Sequence record: FJ483837.1
Length of the DNA stretch: 3,412 nt
Direction: 5' to 3' (one strand)
Source: Escherichia phage BZ13
In this document: piece by piece, positions 1 through 3,412 of the stretch
How positions within the stretch are numbered: the stretch's first letter is position 1
How the letters are laid out: every line of letters starts with the position of its first letter
Notes under the pieces: generated by a model
Told to the model about the DNA's origin: nothing
Seen by the model: the letters and a program-made list of their open reading frames with translations, nothing else
Database searches by the model: none
Made by a program: the position numbers and the translations under genes

Positions 1-82
1 GTTTTGCAAGCGACTCATTTCTGCAGTCTTTTCACCATGCCGTTAGGTTTAGATGACGGTATATCCATATACCGGAGGATCT
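1..82 (+). other. 5' untranslated leader, probably 5'-truncated
   Basis: No convincing ORF before the maturation gene; the frame of the maturation ORF is closed by TAG at 50-52. The window begins GTTTTGC rather than the GGG expected at the 5' end of MS2-like genomes, suggesting missing 5' nucleotides. Confidence 0.5.
57..74 (+). promoter_or_regulatory. Stem-loop next to the maturation-gene ribosome binding site
   Basis: CGGTATA (57-63) is the exact reverse complement of TATACCG (68-74), loop TCCA (64-67). The 3' arm abuts/overlaps the Shine-Dalgarno GGAGG (74-78) upstream of ATG 83. Functional role is inferred by analogy to structure-controlled maturation-gene translation in MS2. Confidence 0.35.
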
Positions 83-1255
83 ATGTTTCCGAAGTCGAAT
101 ATAGACAGAAATTACAAGGTTACACTTATATCTTACGACGAGAAAGGGAAGCTTGTTTCCGACGACTCTTTCGAGCAAGTCGAAAACTATCTCTTTCAAA
201 ATCGTTCGAATACGTATAAACCCGGTTATATCCGTCGTGACTTCCGAAGACCAACGAACTTTTGGAATGGCTTTCGCTATTTCAATCAGCCAGTTGGTAC
301 CTTCACTCGGAAACTCTCTGATGGTGGGAGACAAGTTGCTGATTATGGCATCGTGAACCCTAATAAGTTCACGGGCAACAGCCAGCACTTGGGGGACAAC
401 ATGGTTATTTACCCTGGTCCCTTTTCTATTAATATTGATCACCGAGCTTCTGTCGAAGTCCTCAATAAACTTTCGCAATCAAACCTCAATATTGGGGTTG
501 CAATTGCTGAAGCTAAGATGACTGCTTCATTACTCGCTAAACAATCAATAGCTCTCATCAGAGCCTACACTGCTGCAAAGCGCGGTAAATGGCGAGAGGT
601 GCTTTCTCAGCTCCTCATCTCCGAACACCGTTTCAGAGCTCCTGTTAAGGATCTCGGAGGTCGATGGCTCGAACTGCAGTACGGTTGGTTACCTCTTATG
701 AGCGATATGAAAGCTGCATATGATTTGCTTACGCAAACCAAACTGCCTGCTTTCATGCCCTTGAGGGTTACCCGTACCGTTGGCGGAACGCACAATTATA
801 AAGTGCGCAACGTCGAATCTGCAGGGGATACTTGGTCCTATAGCGATCGTTTGTCGGTGAATTACCGAATATGGTATTTCATTTCCGATCCACGGCTCGC
901 ATGGGCTAGTTCCCTTGGGCTTCTAAACCCTCTAGAAATCTATTGGGAGAAGACGCCTTGGTCTTTCGTCGTTGACTGGTTCTTACCTGTTGGTAATCTT
1001 ATAGAAGCCATGAGTAATCCTCTTGGCCTCGATATTATTTCCGGCACGAAGACCTGGCAACTCGAATCAAAACTTAATGCGACGCTTACAGCTTCGGGTT
1101 GGTCTGGAACTGCAAAGTTATCTGCATACGCGAAAGCATATGACAGGTCAACTTTCTACTCCTTTCCAACTCCTATGCCTTATGTGAAATCCCCACTTAG
1201 TGGGCTTCACTTAGCGAATGCATTAGCCTTAATCAACCAACGCCTGAAAAGGTAA
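83..1255 (+). CDS. mat: Maturation (A / assembly) protein, 390 aa from ATG 83; in-frame alternative start at ATG 53 (400 aa)
   Basis: Long + strand ORF ending TAA 1253-1255. GGAGG at 74-78 lies 4 nt upstream of ATG 83; ATG 53 has only a weak AGG upstream. The translation contains blocks recalled from the MS2 A protein (e.g. [16 protein letters not shown] vs MS2 [16 protein letters not shown]; [16 protein letters not shown] vs DARLAWLSSLGILNPL; SFVVDW; C-terminal ALALI-QRL). First gene of the canonical levivirus order. Confidence 0.88.
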
Positions 1256-1271
1256 TAATGGAGTTAGCCAT

Positions 1272-1664
1272 ATGGCAACTTTACGCAGTTTCGTACTCGT
1301 CGATAATGGCGGTACGGGGAATGTTACTGTCGTTCCTGTTAGCAATGCCAACGGCGTCGCTGAGTGGCTTTCTAATAACTCGCGCAGTCAAGCTTATCGC
1401 GTGACTGCCAGTTATCGTGCGTCAGGCGCGGACAAGCGCAAGTACACCATCAAACTTGAAGTACCGAAAATCGTTACTCAAGTTGTTAACGGTGTCGAGC
1501 TGCCTGTTTCCGCATGGAAGGCTTATGCCTCTATTGACCTGACCATCCCGATCTTTGCTGCAACTGACGATGTGACTGTTATTTCCAAGTCACTCGCTGG
1601 TCTGTTCAAAGTTGGGAACCCTATCGCTGAAGCTATCTCTTCGCAGAGCGGCTTCTACGCGTAA
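1272..1664 (+). CDS. cp: Coat (capsid) protein, 130 aa including initiator Met
   Basis: ORF 1272-1664 with GGAG (1260-1263) 8 nt upstream of the ATG. The translation (MATLRSFVLVDNGGTGNVTVVPVSNANGVAEWLSNNSRSQAYRVT...IPIFAATDD...GNPIAEAISSQSGFYA) is plainly homologous to the MS2 coat (ASNFTQFVLVDNGGTGDVTVAPSNFANGVAEWISSNSRSQAYKVT...) and, from memory, nearly identical to the group II phage GA coat. Mature length of 129 aa matches MS2/GA coats. Confidence 0.95.
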   Translation: MATLRSFVLVDNGGTGNVTVVPVSNANGVAEWLSNNSRSQAYRVTASYRASGADKRKYTIKLEVPKIVTQVVNGVELPVSAWKAYASIDLTIPIFAATDDVTVISKSLAGLFKVGNPIAEAISSQSGFYA

Positions 1665-1855
1665 TGGGTCTGAAAGCAAAACATAAGGAAAACCTATGTT
1701 CCGATTCACAGAGATCGAAAAGACTCTATGTATGGATCGCACTCGCGATTGTGCTGTCCGATTTCACGTCTATCTTCAGTCATTGGATATGGGGTCTTCT
1801 GATCCTCATTCTCCAGACTTTGATGGACTTGCCTACCTTCGTGATGAGTGTTTAA
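1664..1855 (+). CDS. lys: Lysis protein (MS2 L-like single-gene lysis protein), 63 aa, +1 frame overlapping coat stop and replicase 5' region
   Basis: ATG 1664-1666 shares its A with the coat stop codon TAA 1662-1664 (UAAUG). Basic N-terminus (KAKHK...RSKR) is followed by a hydrophobic segment LYVWIALAIVLSDFTS that closely matches the MS2 L segment LYVLIFLAIFLSKFTN, including the conserved Leu-Ser dipeptide (codons at 1754-1759). Position between coat and replicase in a different frame is canonical for MS2-like phages. Confidence 0.8.
   Translation: MGLKAKHKENLCSDSQRSKRLYVWIALAIVLSDFTSIFSHWIWGLLILILQTLMDLPTFVMSV
1681..1699 (+). promoter_or_regulatory. Translational operator hairpin (coat-protein binding site) containing the replicase start codon
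   Basis: ACAUAAGGAAAACCUAUGU: stem 1681-1685 paired with 1695-1699, unpaired A at 1686, G1687-C1694 and G1688-C1693, loop AAAA 1689-1692. The replicase AUG (1696-1698) is in the 3' arm. Same architecture as the MS2 operator ACAUGAGGAUUACCCAUGU (7 bp stem, bulged A, 4-nt loop), with A rather than U at loop position -5. Confidence 0.8.
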
Positions 1856-3294
1856 CTAAACATCCTTCACTAGGAAACAGTAATTCGGATGCACGCCGTA
1901 AGGAATTGGCATATGCCAAACTTATGGATAGTGATCAAAGATGCAAAATCCAAAACAGTAACGGATACGACTACTCTCACATCGAAAGTAGCGTACTGAG
2001 TGGTATACTCAAGACTGCTCAGGCCCTTGTGGCGAACTTGCTTACGGGTTTTGAATCTCACTTCCTGAACGATTGTTCATTCTCCAATGGAGCCTCACAA
2101 GGGTTCAAGTTGCGGGATGCAGCGCCGTTTAAGAAGATCGCTGGGCAAGCAACCGTTACAGCTCCTGCTTATAACATTGCCGTGGCCGCCGTTAAAACGT
2201 GCGCGCCGTGGTATGCTTATATGCAGGAAACGTATGGCGATGAAACCAGATGGTTTCGTCGGGTATACGGCAACGGTTTGTTTTCTGTTCCGAAGAACAA
2301 TAAAATAGATCGGGCTGCCTGTAAGGAGCCTGATATGAATATGTACCTTCAGAAGGGGGCGGGATCTTTTATAAGAAAACGCCTTCGCTCCGTCGGTATA
2401 GATCTTAACGATCAAACGTGCAATCAGGAATTAGCCCGACTTGGCAGCATTGATGGTTCACTCGCTACTATTGATCTTAGTAGCGCTAGTGATTCTGTCT
2501 CTGACCGCCTTGTCTGGGATTTACTTCCGCCACACGTTTATTCATACCTCGCTCGCATCCGTTCATCGTTCACTATGATCGATGGTCGGTTGCACAAGTG
2601 GGGCCTGTTTTCTACTATGGGAAACGGCTTTACATTCGAACTCGAGTCCATGATTTTCTGGGCTTTGAGTAAGAGTGTTATGCTGTCCATGGGTGTTACT
2701 GGCTCATTAGGCATCTACGGTGATGATATAATCGTCCCCGTTGAGTGTGCCCCAACTCTCCTTAAGGTACTATCCGCTGTGAACTTTCTTCCTAATAAGA
2801 AGAAGACGTTCACTACGGGTTACTTTCGTGAAAGTTGTGGTGCTCACTTCTTTAAAGGTGCCGACATGAAACCTTTTTACTGCAAGCGGCCAATGGAAAC
2901 CCTTCCCGATGTCATGTTGCTATGCAACAGGATAAGGGGTTGGCAGACCGTTGGTGGAATGTCAGATCCGCGGCTCTTTCCTATTTGGAAGGAGTTTGCT
3001 GATATGATTCCGCCGAAGTTTAAGGGTGGATGCAACCTGGATCGCGATACTTACCTCGTTTCACCGGATAAACCTGGTGTCACATTGGTTCGAGTCGCTA
3101 AGGTACGTTCTGGTTTTAACCATTCGTTCCCGTACGGCCATGAAAATGGTCGCTACGTCCACTGGTTGCATATGGGATCGGGAGAAGTTCTCGAGACCAT
3201 ATCCTCCGCCAGGTTTAGGTGCAAACCTAACTCGGAATGGAGAACACAGATCCCTCTATTTCCTCAGGAATTAGAGGCCTGCGTTCTCTCCTGA
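1696..3294 (+). CDS. rep: RNA-dependent RNA replicase, beta subunit (532 aa)
   Basis: Long + strand ORF ending TGA 3292-3294. Catalytic YGDD motif at nt 2716-2727 within GIYGDDIIVP; AAGGA (1685-1689) lies 6 nt upstream of the ATG. Last and largest gene of the levivirus order, with length close to the MS2 replicase. Confidence 0.95.
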   Translation: MFRFTEIEKTLCMDRTRDCAVRFHVYLQSLDMGSSDPHSPDFDGLAYLRDECLTKHPSLGNSNSDARRKELAYAKLMDSDQRCKIQNSNGYDYSHIESSVLSGILKTAQALVANLLTGFESHFLNDCSFSNGASQGFKLRDAAPFKKIAGQATVTAPAYNIAVAAVKTCAPWYAYMQETYGDETRWFRRVYGNGLFSVPKNNKIDRAACKEPDMNMYLQKGAGSFIRKRLRSVGIDLNDQTCNQELARLGSIDGSLATIDLSSASDSVSDRLVWDLLPPHVYSYLARIRSSFTMIDGRLHKWGLFSTMGNGFTFELESMIFWALSKSVMLSMGVTGSLGIYGDDIIVPVECAPTLLKVLSAVNFLPNKKKTFTTGYFRESCGAHFFKGADMKPFYCKRPMETLPDVMLLCNRIRGWQTVGGMSDPRLFPIWKEFADMIPPKFKGGCNLDRDTYLVSPDKPGVTLVRVAKVRSGFNHSFPYGHENGRYVHWLHMGSGEVLETISSARFRCKPNSEWRTQIPLFPQELEACVLS

Positions 3295-3343
3295 TAGTAT
3301 CAGGACCTCCCCGGATGGGGTGGGTGTGACCGAAAGGCCACTA

Positions 3344-3360
3344 TGGGGGTGAATCCCCCA
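3344..3360 (+). other. 3' UTR hairpin (6 bp G/C-rich stem, UGAAU loop)
   Basis: UGGGGG (3344-3349) pairs with CCCCCA (3355-3360), loop 3350-3354; exact complementarity read from the sequence. Confidence 0.6.
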
Positions 3361-3375
3361 CCGCCCAAAAGGCGG
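3361..3375 (+). other. 3' UTR hairpin (5 bp stem, CAAAA loop)
   Basis: CCGCC (3361-3365) pairs with GGCGG (3371-3375), loop 3366-3370. Confidence 0.55.
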
Positions 3376-3380
3376 TTTTA

Positions 3381-3407
3381 GGTGACTAGTTTGCTTGGCT
3401 AGTCACC
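3381..3407 (+). other. 3'-terminal hairpin preceding the single-stranded ACCCA tail
   Basis: GGTGACTAG (3381-3389) is the exact reverse complement of CTAGTCACC (3399-3407), loop 3390-3398; followed by ACCCA (3408-3412). Analogous to the terminal hairpin of the MS2 3' domain. Confidence 0.65.
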
Positions 3408-3412
3408 ACCCA

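Follow-up and report, generated by a model that had tools for sequence, protein, structure and literature searches.

The 3′ end of the Escherichia phage BZ13 sequence FJ483837.1 (3,412 nt, hereafter the window) folds into three stable hairpins, which together with the terminus very probably represent the levivirus 3′ domain already described for GA-type phages. The boundaries of this domain are corrected here: it is predicted to be a five-way junction at positions 3321–3412, rather than a set of three separate hairpins followed by a free end. A fourth hairpin lies within it, and the terminal ACCCA is probably paired in the predicted folds with an upstream UGGGU, the interaction known as ld IX. 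The 3′ structure of the RNA coliphages was reportedly treated by Adhin et al. in 1990.

Genome context and folding of the 3′ terminus

The window shares 94.5% nucleotide identity with phage GA (X03869), with positions 3–3412 corresponding to positions 54–3466 of GA, the latter being the last base of GA. Its four genes follow the standard levivirus order, and the ORFs are of the GA type (maturation, coat, lysis, and replicase). On sequence grounds, the window represents a group II levivirus, or GA-type coliphage (Emesvirus japonicum), and its genome is nearly complete. The 5′ end is approximately 53 nt short, with the 5′ hairpin among the missing part, and the 3′ end is complete. The final base of the window is also the final base of the GA, DL20, KU1, and T72 records (DL20 and T72 are BZ13 strains), confirming an earlier note, made from the sequence alone, that the authentic 3′ end is present; for annotation, this means that a GA-type 3′ terminus is available in full. 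The ...ACCACCCA terminus is identical in GA, DL20, KU1, T72, MS2, fr, DL52, and DL1. Among the group II records compared, the last 32 nt are identical and the last 133 nt are 88–95.5% identical. The replicase ORF ends at position 3294, and the 3′ domain falls in the stretch separating this stop codon from the plus-strand terminus. The features of this region are as follows, all on the plus strand:

3289–3305, plus strand: R1 hairpin, UCCUGAU-AGU-AUCAGGA, an inverted repeat paired in the minimum free energy (MFE) fold, with the replicase stop codon UGA at 3292–3294
3309–3320, plus strand: CCCC-GGAU-GGGG hairpin, in the MFE fold, directly 5′ of the ld IX strand
3321–3325, plus strand: UGGGU, 5′ strand of ld IX, paired with 3408–3412 in the MFE fold
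3326–3341, plus strand: fourth hairpin, GUGACC-GAAA-GGCCAC, with an A3329/C3338 mismatch and a GNRA loop, in the MFE fold
3345–3359, plus strand: hairpin 1, GGGGG-UGAAU-CCCCC, 5 bp, pair probability at least 0.99
3360–3376, plus strand: hairpin 2, (A)CCGCC-CAAAA-GGCGG(U), abutting hairpin 1
3377–3380, plus strand: U/A-rich linker UUUA between hairpin 2 and U1, unpaired in every fold
3381–3407, plus strand: U1, the terminal hairpin, with a 9-bp Watson–Crick stem GGUGACUAG/CUAGUCACC and two possible G–U pairs, pair probability at least 0.99
3408–3412, plus strand: ACCCA terminus, 3′ strand of ld IX, paired in the MFE fold; candidate initiation site of the minus strand

Hairpins 1 and 2 and U1 coincide with exact inverted repeats at 3344–3349/3355–3360 (UGGGGG/CCCCCA), 3360–3365/3371–3376 (ACCGCC/GGCGGU), and 3381–3389/3399–3407 (GGUGACUAG/CUAGUCACC), respectively. 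RNAfold of 3344–3412 produced exactly these three hairpins at −38.0 kcal/mol (shuffle mean −20.7, z = −6.4), and none of 200 dinucleotide shuffles was as stable. The core pair probabilities of the three hairpins were 0.98–1.0 in contexts of 127, 162, and 212 nt, and the pair probability of hairpin 2 decreased to 0.2 in a 412-nt fold. The three hairpins that the earlier note had proposed are thus borne out as inverted repeats and in the MFE structure, as well as by their conservation and compensation in related phages (see below). The boundaries given there for two of them, 3361–3375 and 3381–3407, hold, whereas the first, given as 3344–3360, is trimmed to 3345–3359 with 5 bp because A3360 cannot serve both hairpins and the outer pair U3344–A3360 is weak (P = 0.28) and lacks an equivalent in KU1 and T72. 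Hairpin 2 occupies 3361–3375, with an optional extension by the A3360–U3376 pair. There is no nucleotide between hairpins 1 and 2, and the 4-nt linker precedes U1; the stacked arrangement named in the earlier note is an inference. In U1, the top of the stem is extended by two G–U pairs, U3390–G3398 (P = 0.99) and U3391–G3397 (P = 0.91), and the loop contains UGCUU at 3392–3396, as is characteristic of the levivirus U1.

The terminal ACCCA (3408–3412) is the exact complement of UGGGU at 3321–3325, with five of five Watson–Crick pairs, and RNAfold pairs the two once the upstream R1 hairpin is included. For 3286–3412, the MFE was −63.3 kcal/mol (z = −4.9), again with none of 200 dinucleotide shuffles as good, and the UGGGU/ACCCA pair probability was 0.56–0.92, although this was lost in the 412-nt context. 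The same pairing occurs in the MFE structures of GA, DL20, KU1, T72, DL52, MS2, and fr, and UGGGU is invariant in all eight Emesvirus genomes compared and is also found in the distant relatives L135 and L133. The gain from ld IX in the nearest-neighbour model is small (0.8–1.8 kcal/mol), and given this marginal energy and the loss at 412 nt, thermodynamics alone is indecisive on the state of the tail. Covariation neither supports nor refutes ld IX, because it is invariant within Emesvirus, and the same applies to the pairing of the U1 loop with its upstream partner discussed below. Meanwhile, ld IX, U1, and the conserved UGCUU loop have been described for all known leviviruses (PMC3561173), and in the Qbeta virion model, based on cryo-electron microscopy (cryo-EM), the 3′ untranslated region (UTR) is a five-way junction whose six terminal nucleotides, CCA tail included, are paired (PMC8880383). 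The folding model and these descriptions suggest that the ACCCA tail is probably paired with UGGGU rather than free; the invariant complement, the pairing in the MFE fold, and the presence of ld IX in the literature all argue against the free, unpaired ACCCA of the earlier note. RNAfold was also run on the range 3295–3412 that had been put forward with that claim. This range cuts R1 in half, and the resulting closure of G3303/G3304 with C3410/C3411 is misleading; it was discarded in favor of the fold from 3286, which has an intact R1 and gives ld IX.

The predicted architecture would therefore comprise R1, the CCCC/GGGG hairpin, and then a five-way junction closed by ld IX around four hairpins (3326–3341, 3345–3359, 3360–3376, and 3381–3407), where at least three hairpins inside ld IX mark a levivirus domain. 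The idea that three hairpins make up the whole element did not survive, since 3326–3341 is a fourth one inside the larger 3321–3412 domain. R1 lies outside the closed 3′ domain and is invariant in five group II genomes, and a hairpin over the replicase stop codon is also predicted in MS2, fr, and DL52. For the 3309–3320 hairpin, the stem is invariant in group II under a GGAU, GUAU, or GGAC loop, and the equivalent position in MS2, fr, and DL52 is occupied by CCCCG-UAAN-CGGGG.

Conservation and compensatory changes in the hairpins

The comparative evidence is based on an alignment (A3) of eight Emesvirus genomes (the window, GA, DL20, KU1, T72, MS2, fr, and DL52) in three alignable genome pieces. 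Standard base pairs were found in 96.3% of the cells of this alignment, compared with 25–49% when the partners were slid by 1–3 columns. Changes on both sides were observed in five pairs, a number reached by only 3 of 500 shuffles, and the overall covariation score exceeded that of all 500 shuffles. In the 3326–3341 hairpin, three of the six pairs are compensated within Emesvirus (GUGACC/GGCCAC, GGGACC/GGUUCC, and GUGCUC/GAGCAC), and the A3329/C3338 mismatch of the window is repaired to A–U in L129, a record whose replicase is 98% identical to that of the window. The five complete group II genomes have the same U1 sequence (the L129 record ends before U1), and two of the nine U1 pairs are compensated between groups: a G–C pair of the window is A–U in MS2 and fr, and an A–U pair is G–C in fr.

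The stem of hairpin 1 is GGGGG/CCCCC in the window only; it is GGAGG/CCUCC in the five other group II genomes, L129 among them. By sequence comparison, G3347–C3357 is a single, strain-specific compensatory change from A–U to G–C, unique to the window. The G/C-rich stem that had been singled out as notable is indeed present, and it is explained by this one change in this strain; it is not a feature of the group. As a by-product, the change provides a clean natural compensation (A–U to G–C) that backs hairpin 1, although the covariation of hairpin 1 taken alone is weak, consisting of one event that was matched by 82 of 500 shuffles. The loops of hairpin 1 vary in both length and sequence (UGAAU, UGAAC, UGAUAC, and UGAUAU). 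Likewise, the CGCC/GGCG stem of hairpin 2 is retained under three loops, CAAAA, UUUAUU (KU1), and GUAA (T72); its pairs were not formally counted because the KU1 and T72 stems were misaligned by MAFFT. The retained stems and drifting loops and sequences are consistent with hairpins 1 and 2 acting mainly as structural spacers of the junction.

The linker at 3377–3380 is variable in group II (UCUC and UUAA) and reads AUUU in MS2 and CUCUAUA in L135. Hairpin V is recognized by a large A-rich loop, and hairpin 2 offers only the 5-nt CAAAA loop in this respect. Hairpin V is less pronounced or absent in several phages, and a linker-type substitute for it has been proposed for PRR1, C-1, Hgal1, and M (PMC3561173). 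By analogy, the A/U-rich linker at 3377–3380 may substitute for hairpin V in the window. Furthermore, the same order of elements (UGGGU, a GNRA hairpin, two hairpins, an A/U-rich linker, and U1) was found in L135 (55% replicase identity) and DL52, in which the stem sequences are unrelated.

Searches of general resources yielded little. Rfam 15, with E-values of up to 1, gave no hits in 3295–3412, and ARAGORN found no tRNA-like genes. Elsewhere in the window, the Rfam hits were a chance snoRNA match and a sub-threshold match to the MS2 operator at 1679–1699. A collection scan with the pattern TGCTTGGN7CCACCCA returned mostly chance matches in DNA phages, with only GA itself (L011) being relevant. 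A stricter 3′-end pattern matched GA only in IMG/VR, and a group II 3′-end pattern had no match in the JGI metagenomes. The contigs encoding replicase homologues (55–98% identity) all end before or within the 5′ arm of U1. Metagenomic assemblies of relatives systematically lack the terminal hairpin, which limits comparative tests of covariation between the U1 loop and its partner in the candidate pseudoknot.

Possible roles of U1, the tail, and a long-range partner

We infer the life-cycle roles of the domain from MS2, Qbeta, and AP205. The Qbeta replicase initiates the minus strand at the penultimate C, and the terminal A is added without a template (PMC10610835). If the window behaves similarly, its CCCA end would be the start for the replicase on the minus strand, and prior release from ld IX would be required. 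In MS2, a self-replicating RNA selected with the MS2 replicase by serial transfer is made up of 118 nt from the 5′ end of the genome and 105 nt from its 3′ end (PMC8956599). Because this parasite RNA keeps the last 105 nt, the terminal hairpins belong to the minimal replicable unit; because it contains neither the 5′ strand of ld IX nor the pseudoknot partner, both are dispensable for basic template activity.

The best-documented partner of U1 is, by analogy with related phages, the maturation protein. The sequence GCUUGGC at 3393–3399 matches the motif GCUUXGC, located at the apex of the final AP205 stem-loop and clamped there by the maturation protein (PMC10980823). U1 is also bound by the maturation protein in Qbeta and MS2, and mutants of U1 or R1 in Qbeta lose maturation-protein incorporation and infectivity (PMC8880383). 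U1 may therefore serve, via its GCUUGGC loop, as the point at which the single maturation protein of the virion grips the RNA, in which case the 3′ end would be packaged beside that protein and pulled with it into the next host.

The U1 loop also has a complement within the replicase gene:

2146–2152, plus strand: CAAGCAA, replicase gene, in codons Q-A-T; candidate partner of U1 nucleotides 3391–3397 (UUGCUUG)

The two sequences would form 7 bp (−9.0 kcal/mol as a duplex), and the upstream site lies approximately 1.25 kb (1,247 nt) from the U1 loop. On the plus strand of the window, CAAGCA occurs at this site only. The chance expectation for this 6-mer is 1.67 matches in the window on both strands, and a 7-nt complement within 3.4 kb is not rare by chance. 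Meanwhile, all eight Emesvirus genomes compared carry CAAGCAA unchanged at the same codon, and its AGCAAC core is retained in five relatives at 55–59% replicase identity. When the codons of nine lineages were aligned, nucleotide conservation within the gene peaked at 2080–2160, above that of the YGDD motif, and the loop complement was conserved even at synonymous sites. This places the candidate partner, as a further by-product of the analysis, where the replicase gene is most conserved at the nucleotide level across Emesvirus-like lineages. The predicted accessibility of 2146–2152 was inconsistent across contexts and genomes.

Comparable complements of the U1 loop were found upstream in other phages: at 1,340 nt in MS2, 1,345 nt in fr, 1,216 nt in M (UUGCU/AGCAA), 1,251 nt in PP7 (GCUCAG/CUGAGC), and 1,221 nt in the Qbeta type (CUGCUUU/AAAGCAG; NC_001890). 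Across genera, the loop and its complement differ together (PP7, the Qbeta type, and M), although short matches of this kind are expected by chance. The partner column is near-homologous in PP7, and the Qbeta site is approximately 69 alignment columns off. An altered partner, GAGCAA, occurs in AVE017 and L133, both of which are assemblies without U1. In PMC3561173, a pseudoknot between the Qbeta U1 loop and a sequence approximately 1,200 nt upstream is cited as essential for replication, and the U1-loop pseudoknot is described as unverified in phages other than Qbeta. Based on this analogy, a pseudoknot between the U1 loop and CAAGCAA is a reasonable candidate in the window. Such pairing with 2146–2152 would bring the 3′ end to an internal region of the replicase gene, as the Qbeta pseudoknot does. 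A further proposal, which we consider rather doubtful, is that the U1 loop acts as a mutually exclusive switch between pairing with 2146–2152, for minus-strand synthesis, and the maturation-protein clamp, for packaging, with release from ld IX as a second gate. If this were true, the clamp would take a genome copy out of replication and commit it to packaging. The demonstration of both the pseudoknot and this competition in an Emesvirus would be new, since the pseudoknot has been shown only in Qbeta.

The evidence on the maturation protein could be taken further, to mean that the domain is mainly a handle for packaging and delivery, in which U1 is held by the maturation protein, the other hairpins shape a junction that docks to the capsid, and replication needs only CCCA. 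The cryo-EM and mutant data for Qbeta, the comparison with MS2, the contacts of the AP205 maturation protein with GCUUXGC (GCUUGGC at 3393–3399 in the window), and the invariance of the U1 loop across Emesvirus are all consistent with this. We nevertheless consider such a dominant packaging role tentative and, on balance, unlikely: the selected MS2 replicon keeps its terminal 105 nt with no maturation protein present, not even the synonymous sites of the loop complement in the replicase gene vary, and Qbeta replication depends on the pseudoknot formed by the U1 loop, as cited in PMC3561173.

The structure might also have been selected on the minus strand. There, the complement of 3381–3412 would form a 5′ hairpin that separates product from template and defines the end of plus-strand synthesis, and the plus-strand hairpins would be a by-product. 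The reverse complement does fold into a mirror structure (z = −5.7), so that the complement of the domain would give the minus strand a stable 5′ hairpin, a feature that a figure legend in PMC3561173 calls important for RNA replication. The U1 stem consists entirely of Watson–Crick pairs and is therefore equally stable on both strands, and the A3329/C3338 mismatch becomes a G–U pair on the minus strand. In contrast, U1 is extended by G–U pairs that exist only on the plus strand, the G–U pair in the GAAA hairpin of KU1 and T72 is likewise specific to the plus strand, and the maturation protein reads its loop motif on the plus strand. The roles on the two strands are not mutually exclusive, and selection on the minus strand as the main explanation seems rather unlikely to us; a plus-strand 3′ domain of the levivirus type remains the preferred reading.

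The earlier note had further regarded the 3′ end as a domain recognized by the replicase holoenzyme. The assignment as a levivirus 3′ domain stands, and a template role is backed in MS2, but recognition in Qbeta does not occur via the 3′ hairpins alone: on the plus strand, S1 mediates recognition at an internal M site of the Qbeta RNA, and the enzyme meets the 3′ domain through long-distance contacts (PMC4176380). The corresponding explanation would be a promoter recognized directly by the replicase holoenzyme and built from three stacked hairpins, independent of one another, plus an ACCCA that is always free, with no long-range pairing or other partners. The robustness of the hairpins, the unpaired tail in the 412-nt fold, the need of the replicase for a free CCCA at initiation, and the MS2 parasite RNA, with its last 105 nt retained in the absence of the ld IX 5′ strand, are compatible with such a promoter. 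Nevertheless, this explanation appears improbable in view of the invariant UGGGU complement and the paired tail in the MFE structures of eight genomes, the description of ld IX in all known leviviruses and its visibility in the Qbeta virion, the use of the M site and long-range contacts in Qbeta, and the binding of U1 by the maturation protein. Furthermore, synthetic plus strands failed to be copied although both MS2 UTRs were present (PMC6847885). Finally, the possibility that the inverted repeats merely reflect chance or the composition of a G+C-rich tail (57.6% in the UTR versus 47.1% in the genome), without any selected structure, is already refuted for practical purposes even though hairpin 1 covaries by a single event, because none of 200 dinucleotide shuffles folded as well, compensatory changes occur in three helices, stems are retained under changing loops, and unrelated sequences build the same architecture in L135 and DL52.

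Comparison with known viral 3′ ends

The tRNA-like 3′ structures of plant plus-strand viruses are likewise structured ends that terminate in CCA and serve minus-strand initiation. Unlike these, the window has a multi-hairpin junction, carries no aminoacylation signal, and gave no ARAGORN or Rfam match. Qbeta has a UGCUU-type terminal loop, a folded-back 3′ end, and a U1 bound by the maturation protein, and the window shares the hairpin and the predicted fold-back. The loop complement is located at a similar distance in the two genomes, 1,221 nt upstream in Qbeta (NC_001890) versus 1,247 nt in the window. The Qbeta sequence is unalignable with that of the window, its tail pairs into R1 (residues 4124–4129), and the evidence for the pseudoknot and for Hfq dependence is experimental in Qbeta only.

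MS2 and fr (group I, Emesvirus zinderi) have in common with the window the ACCACCCA terminus, the design of U1, the UGCUUGG loop, UGGGU followed by a GAAA hairpin, and the CAAGCAA codons of the replicase gene. Their UTRs are longer (171–176 nt) and contain seven hairpins in all (PMC3561173), with more of them inside ld IX, compared with four in the junction of the window. The U1 stem of these phages differs from that of the window by compensatory pairs, and the MS2 loop is one nucleotide shorter.

The closest resemblance is to GA, KU1, and BZ13, whose 3′ UTRs belong to the same length class as that of the window (115–119 nt). KU1 and T72 have different loops in hairpins 1 and 2, and their GAAA or GUAA hairpin is fully paired. 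In GA, an additional C separates hairpins 1 and 2. The window differs from the other group II genomes by G–C in place of A–U at 3347/3357 and by one loop base (U3354). The order of elements in GA, KU1, and BZ13 is that of the window throughout: R1, the CCCC hairpin, UGGGU, the GAAA hairpin, two hairpins, the linker, U1, and ACCCA.

A possible cis-acting RNA element and the replicase operator hairpin

Across nine Emesvirus-like lineages, the highest nucleotide conservation in the replicase gene was found at window positions 2078–2160, where it exceeded that of the YGDD region and extended to synonymous sites. This stretch contains a predicted irregular hairpin, and the candidate pseudoknot partner CAAGCAA (2146–2152), which is complementary to the loop of the 3'-terminal hairpin U1, lies just downstream of that hairpin. 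Positions 2143–2184 of MS2 are predicted to fold with an identical topology from a changed sequence. The region 2078–2160 may be a cis-acting RNA element. The structures in the replicase region are as follows:

Window 2078–2119, irregular hairpin (predicted) inside the conserved stretch
Window 1679–1699, replicase operator hairpin, AAACAUAAGGAAAACCUAUGU, sub-threshold match to Rfam RF02359

The operator hairpin scored only 18.1 bits against the MS2 operator model RF02359, whose gathering score is 40; the group II operator is not captured by this model.

Genome ends in the window and in assembled relatives

At its 5' side (positions 1–60), the window begins approximately 53 nt inside the genome and lacks the 5'-terminal GGGUGGG... 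hairpin of DL20, KU1, and GA; it is thus truncated at the 5' end, whereas its 3' end is complete. Two starts are listed for the maturation gene, and the sequence GGAGGA precedes the second:

Window 53–1255, mechanically listed ORF, start ATG 53, 400 aa
Window ATG 83, start corresponding to the GA annotation, 390 aa

In all three relatives assembled from metagenomes or transcriptomes, the contig reaches the 5' arm of U1 and stops there or a few bases into it:

L129, contig end at 3425, ...UUUUAGG
L133, contig end at 3505, ...UUUUAG
L135, contig end at 3458, ...UAUAGGUGAC

The terminal inverted repeat seems to be lost by assemblers, and U1 is therefore usually missing from the public contigs of this group. 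In BK013361.1 (ssRNA phage AVE017), the final bases (3470–3483) are AGATCGGAAGAGCG, the start of the Illumina adapter; the deposited 3' end is therefore probably adapter contamination and not the genome terminus.

Comparison genomes of Qbeta and MS2 type

NC_001890.1 is titled "Enterobacteria phage Qbeta" and carries MX1 locus tags (MX1p1-4); it is doubtful that this is Qbeta proper, and we therefore term it a Qbeta-type genome. MS2 isolate DL52 (JQ966307.1) has an MS2-type replicase and a short 3' UTR (125 nt, 3401–3525). Its U1 stem, GGUGAC/GUCACC, belongs to the group II type and contains a single A/C mismatch, and the hairpins within its junction, the 3' domain closed by UGGGU/ACCCA, are unrelated. 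DL52 looks like a natural mosaic of groups I and II.
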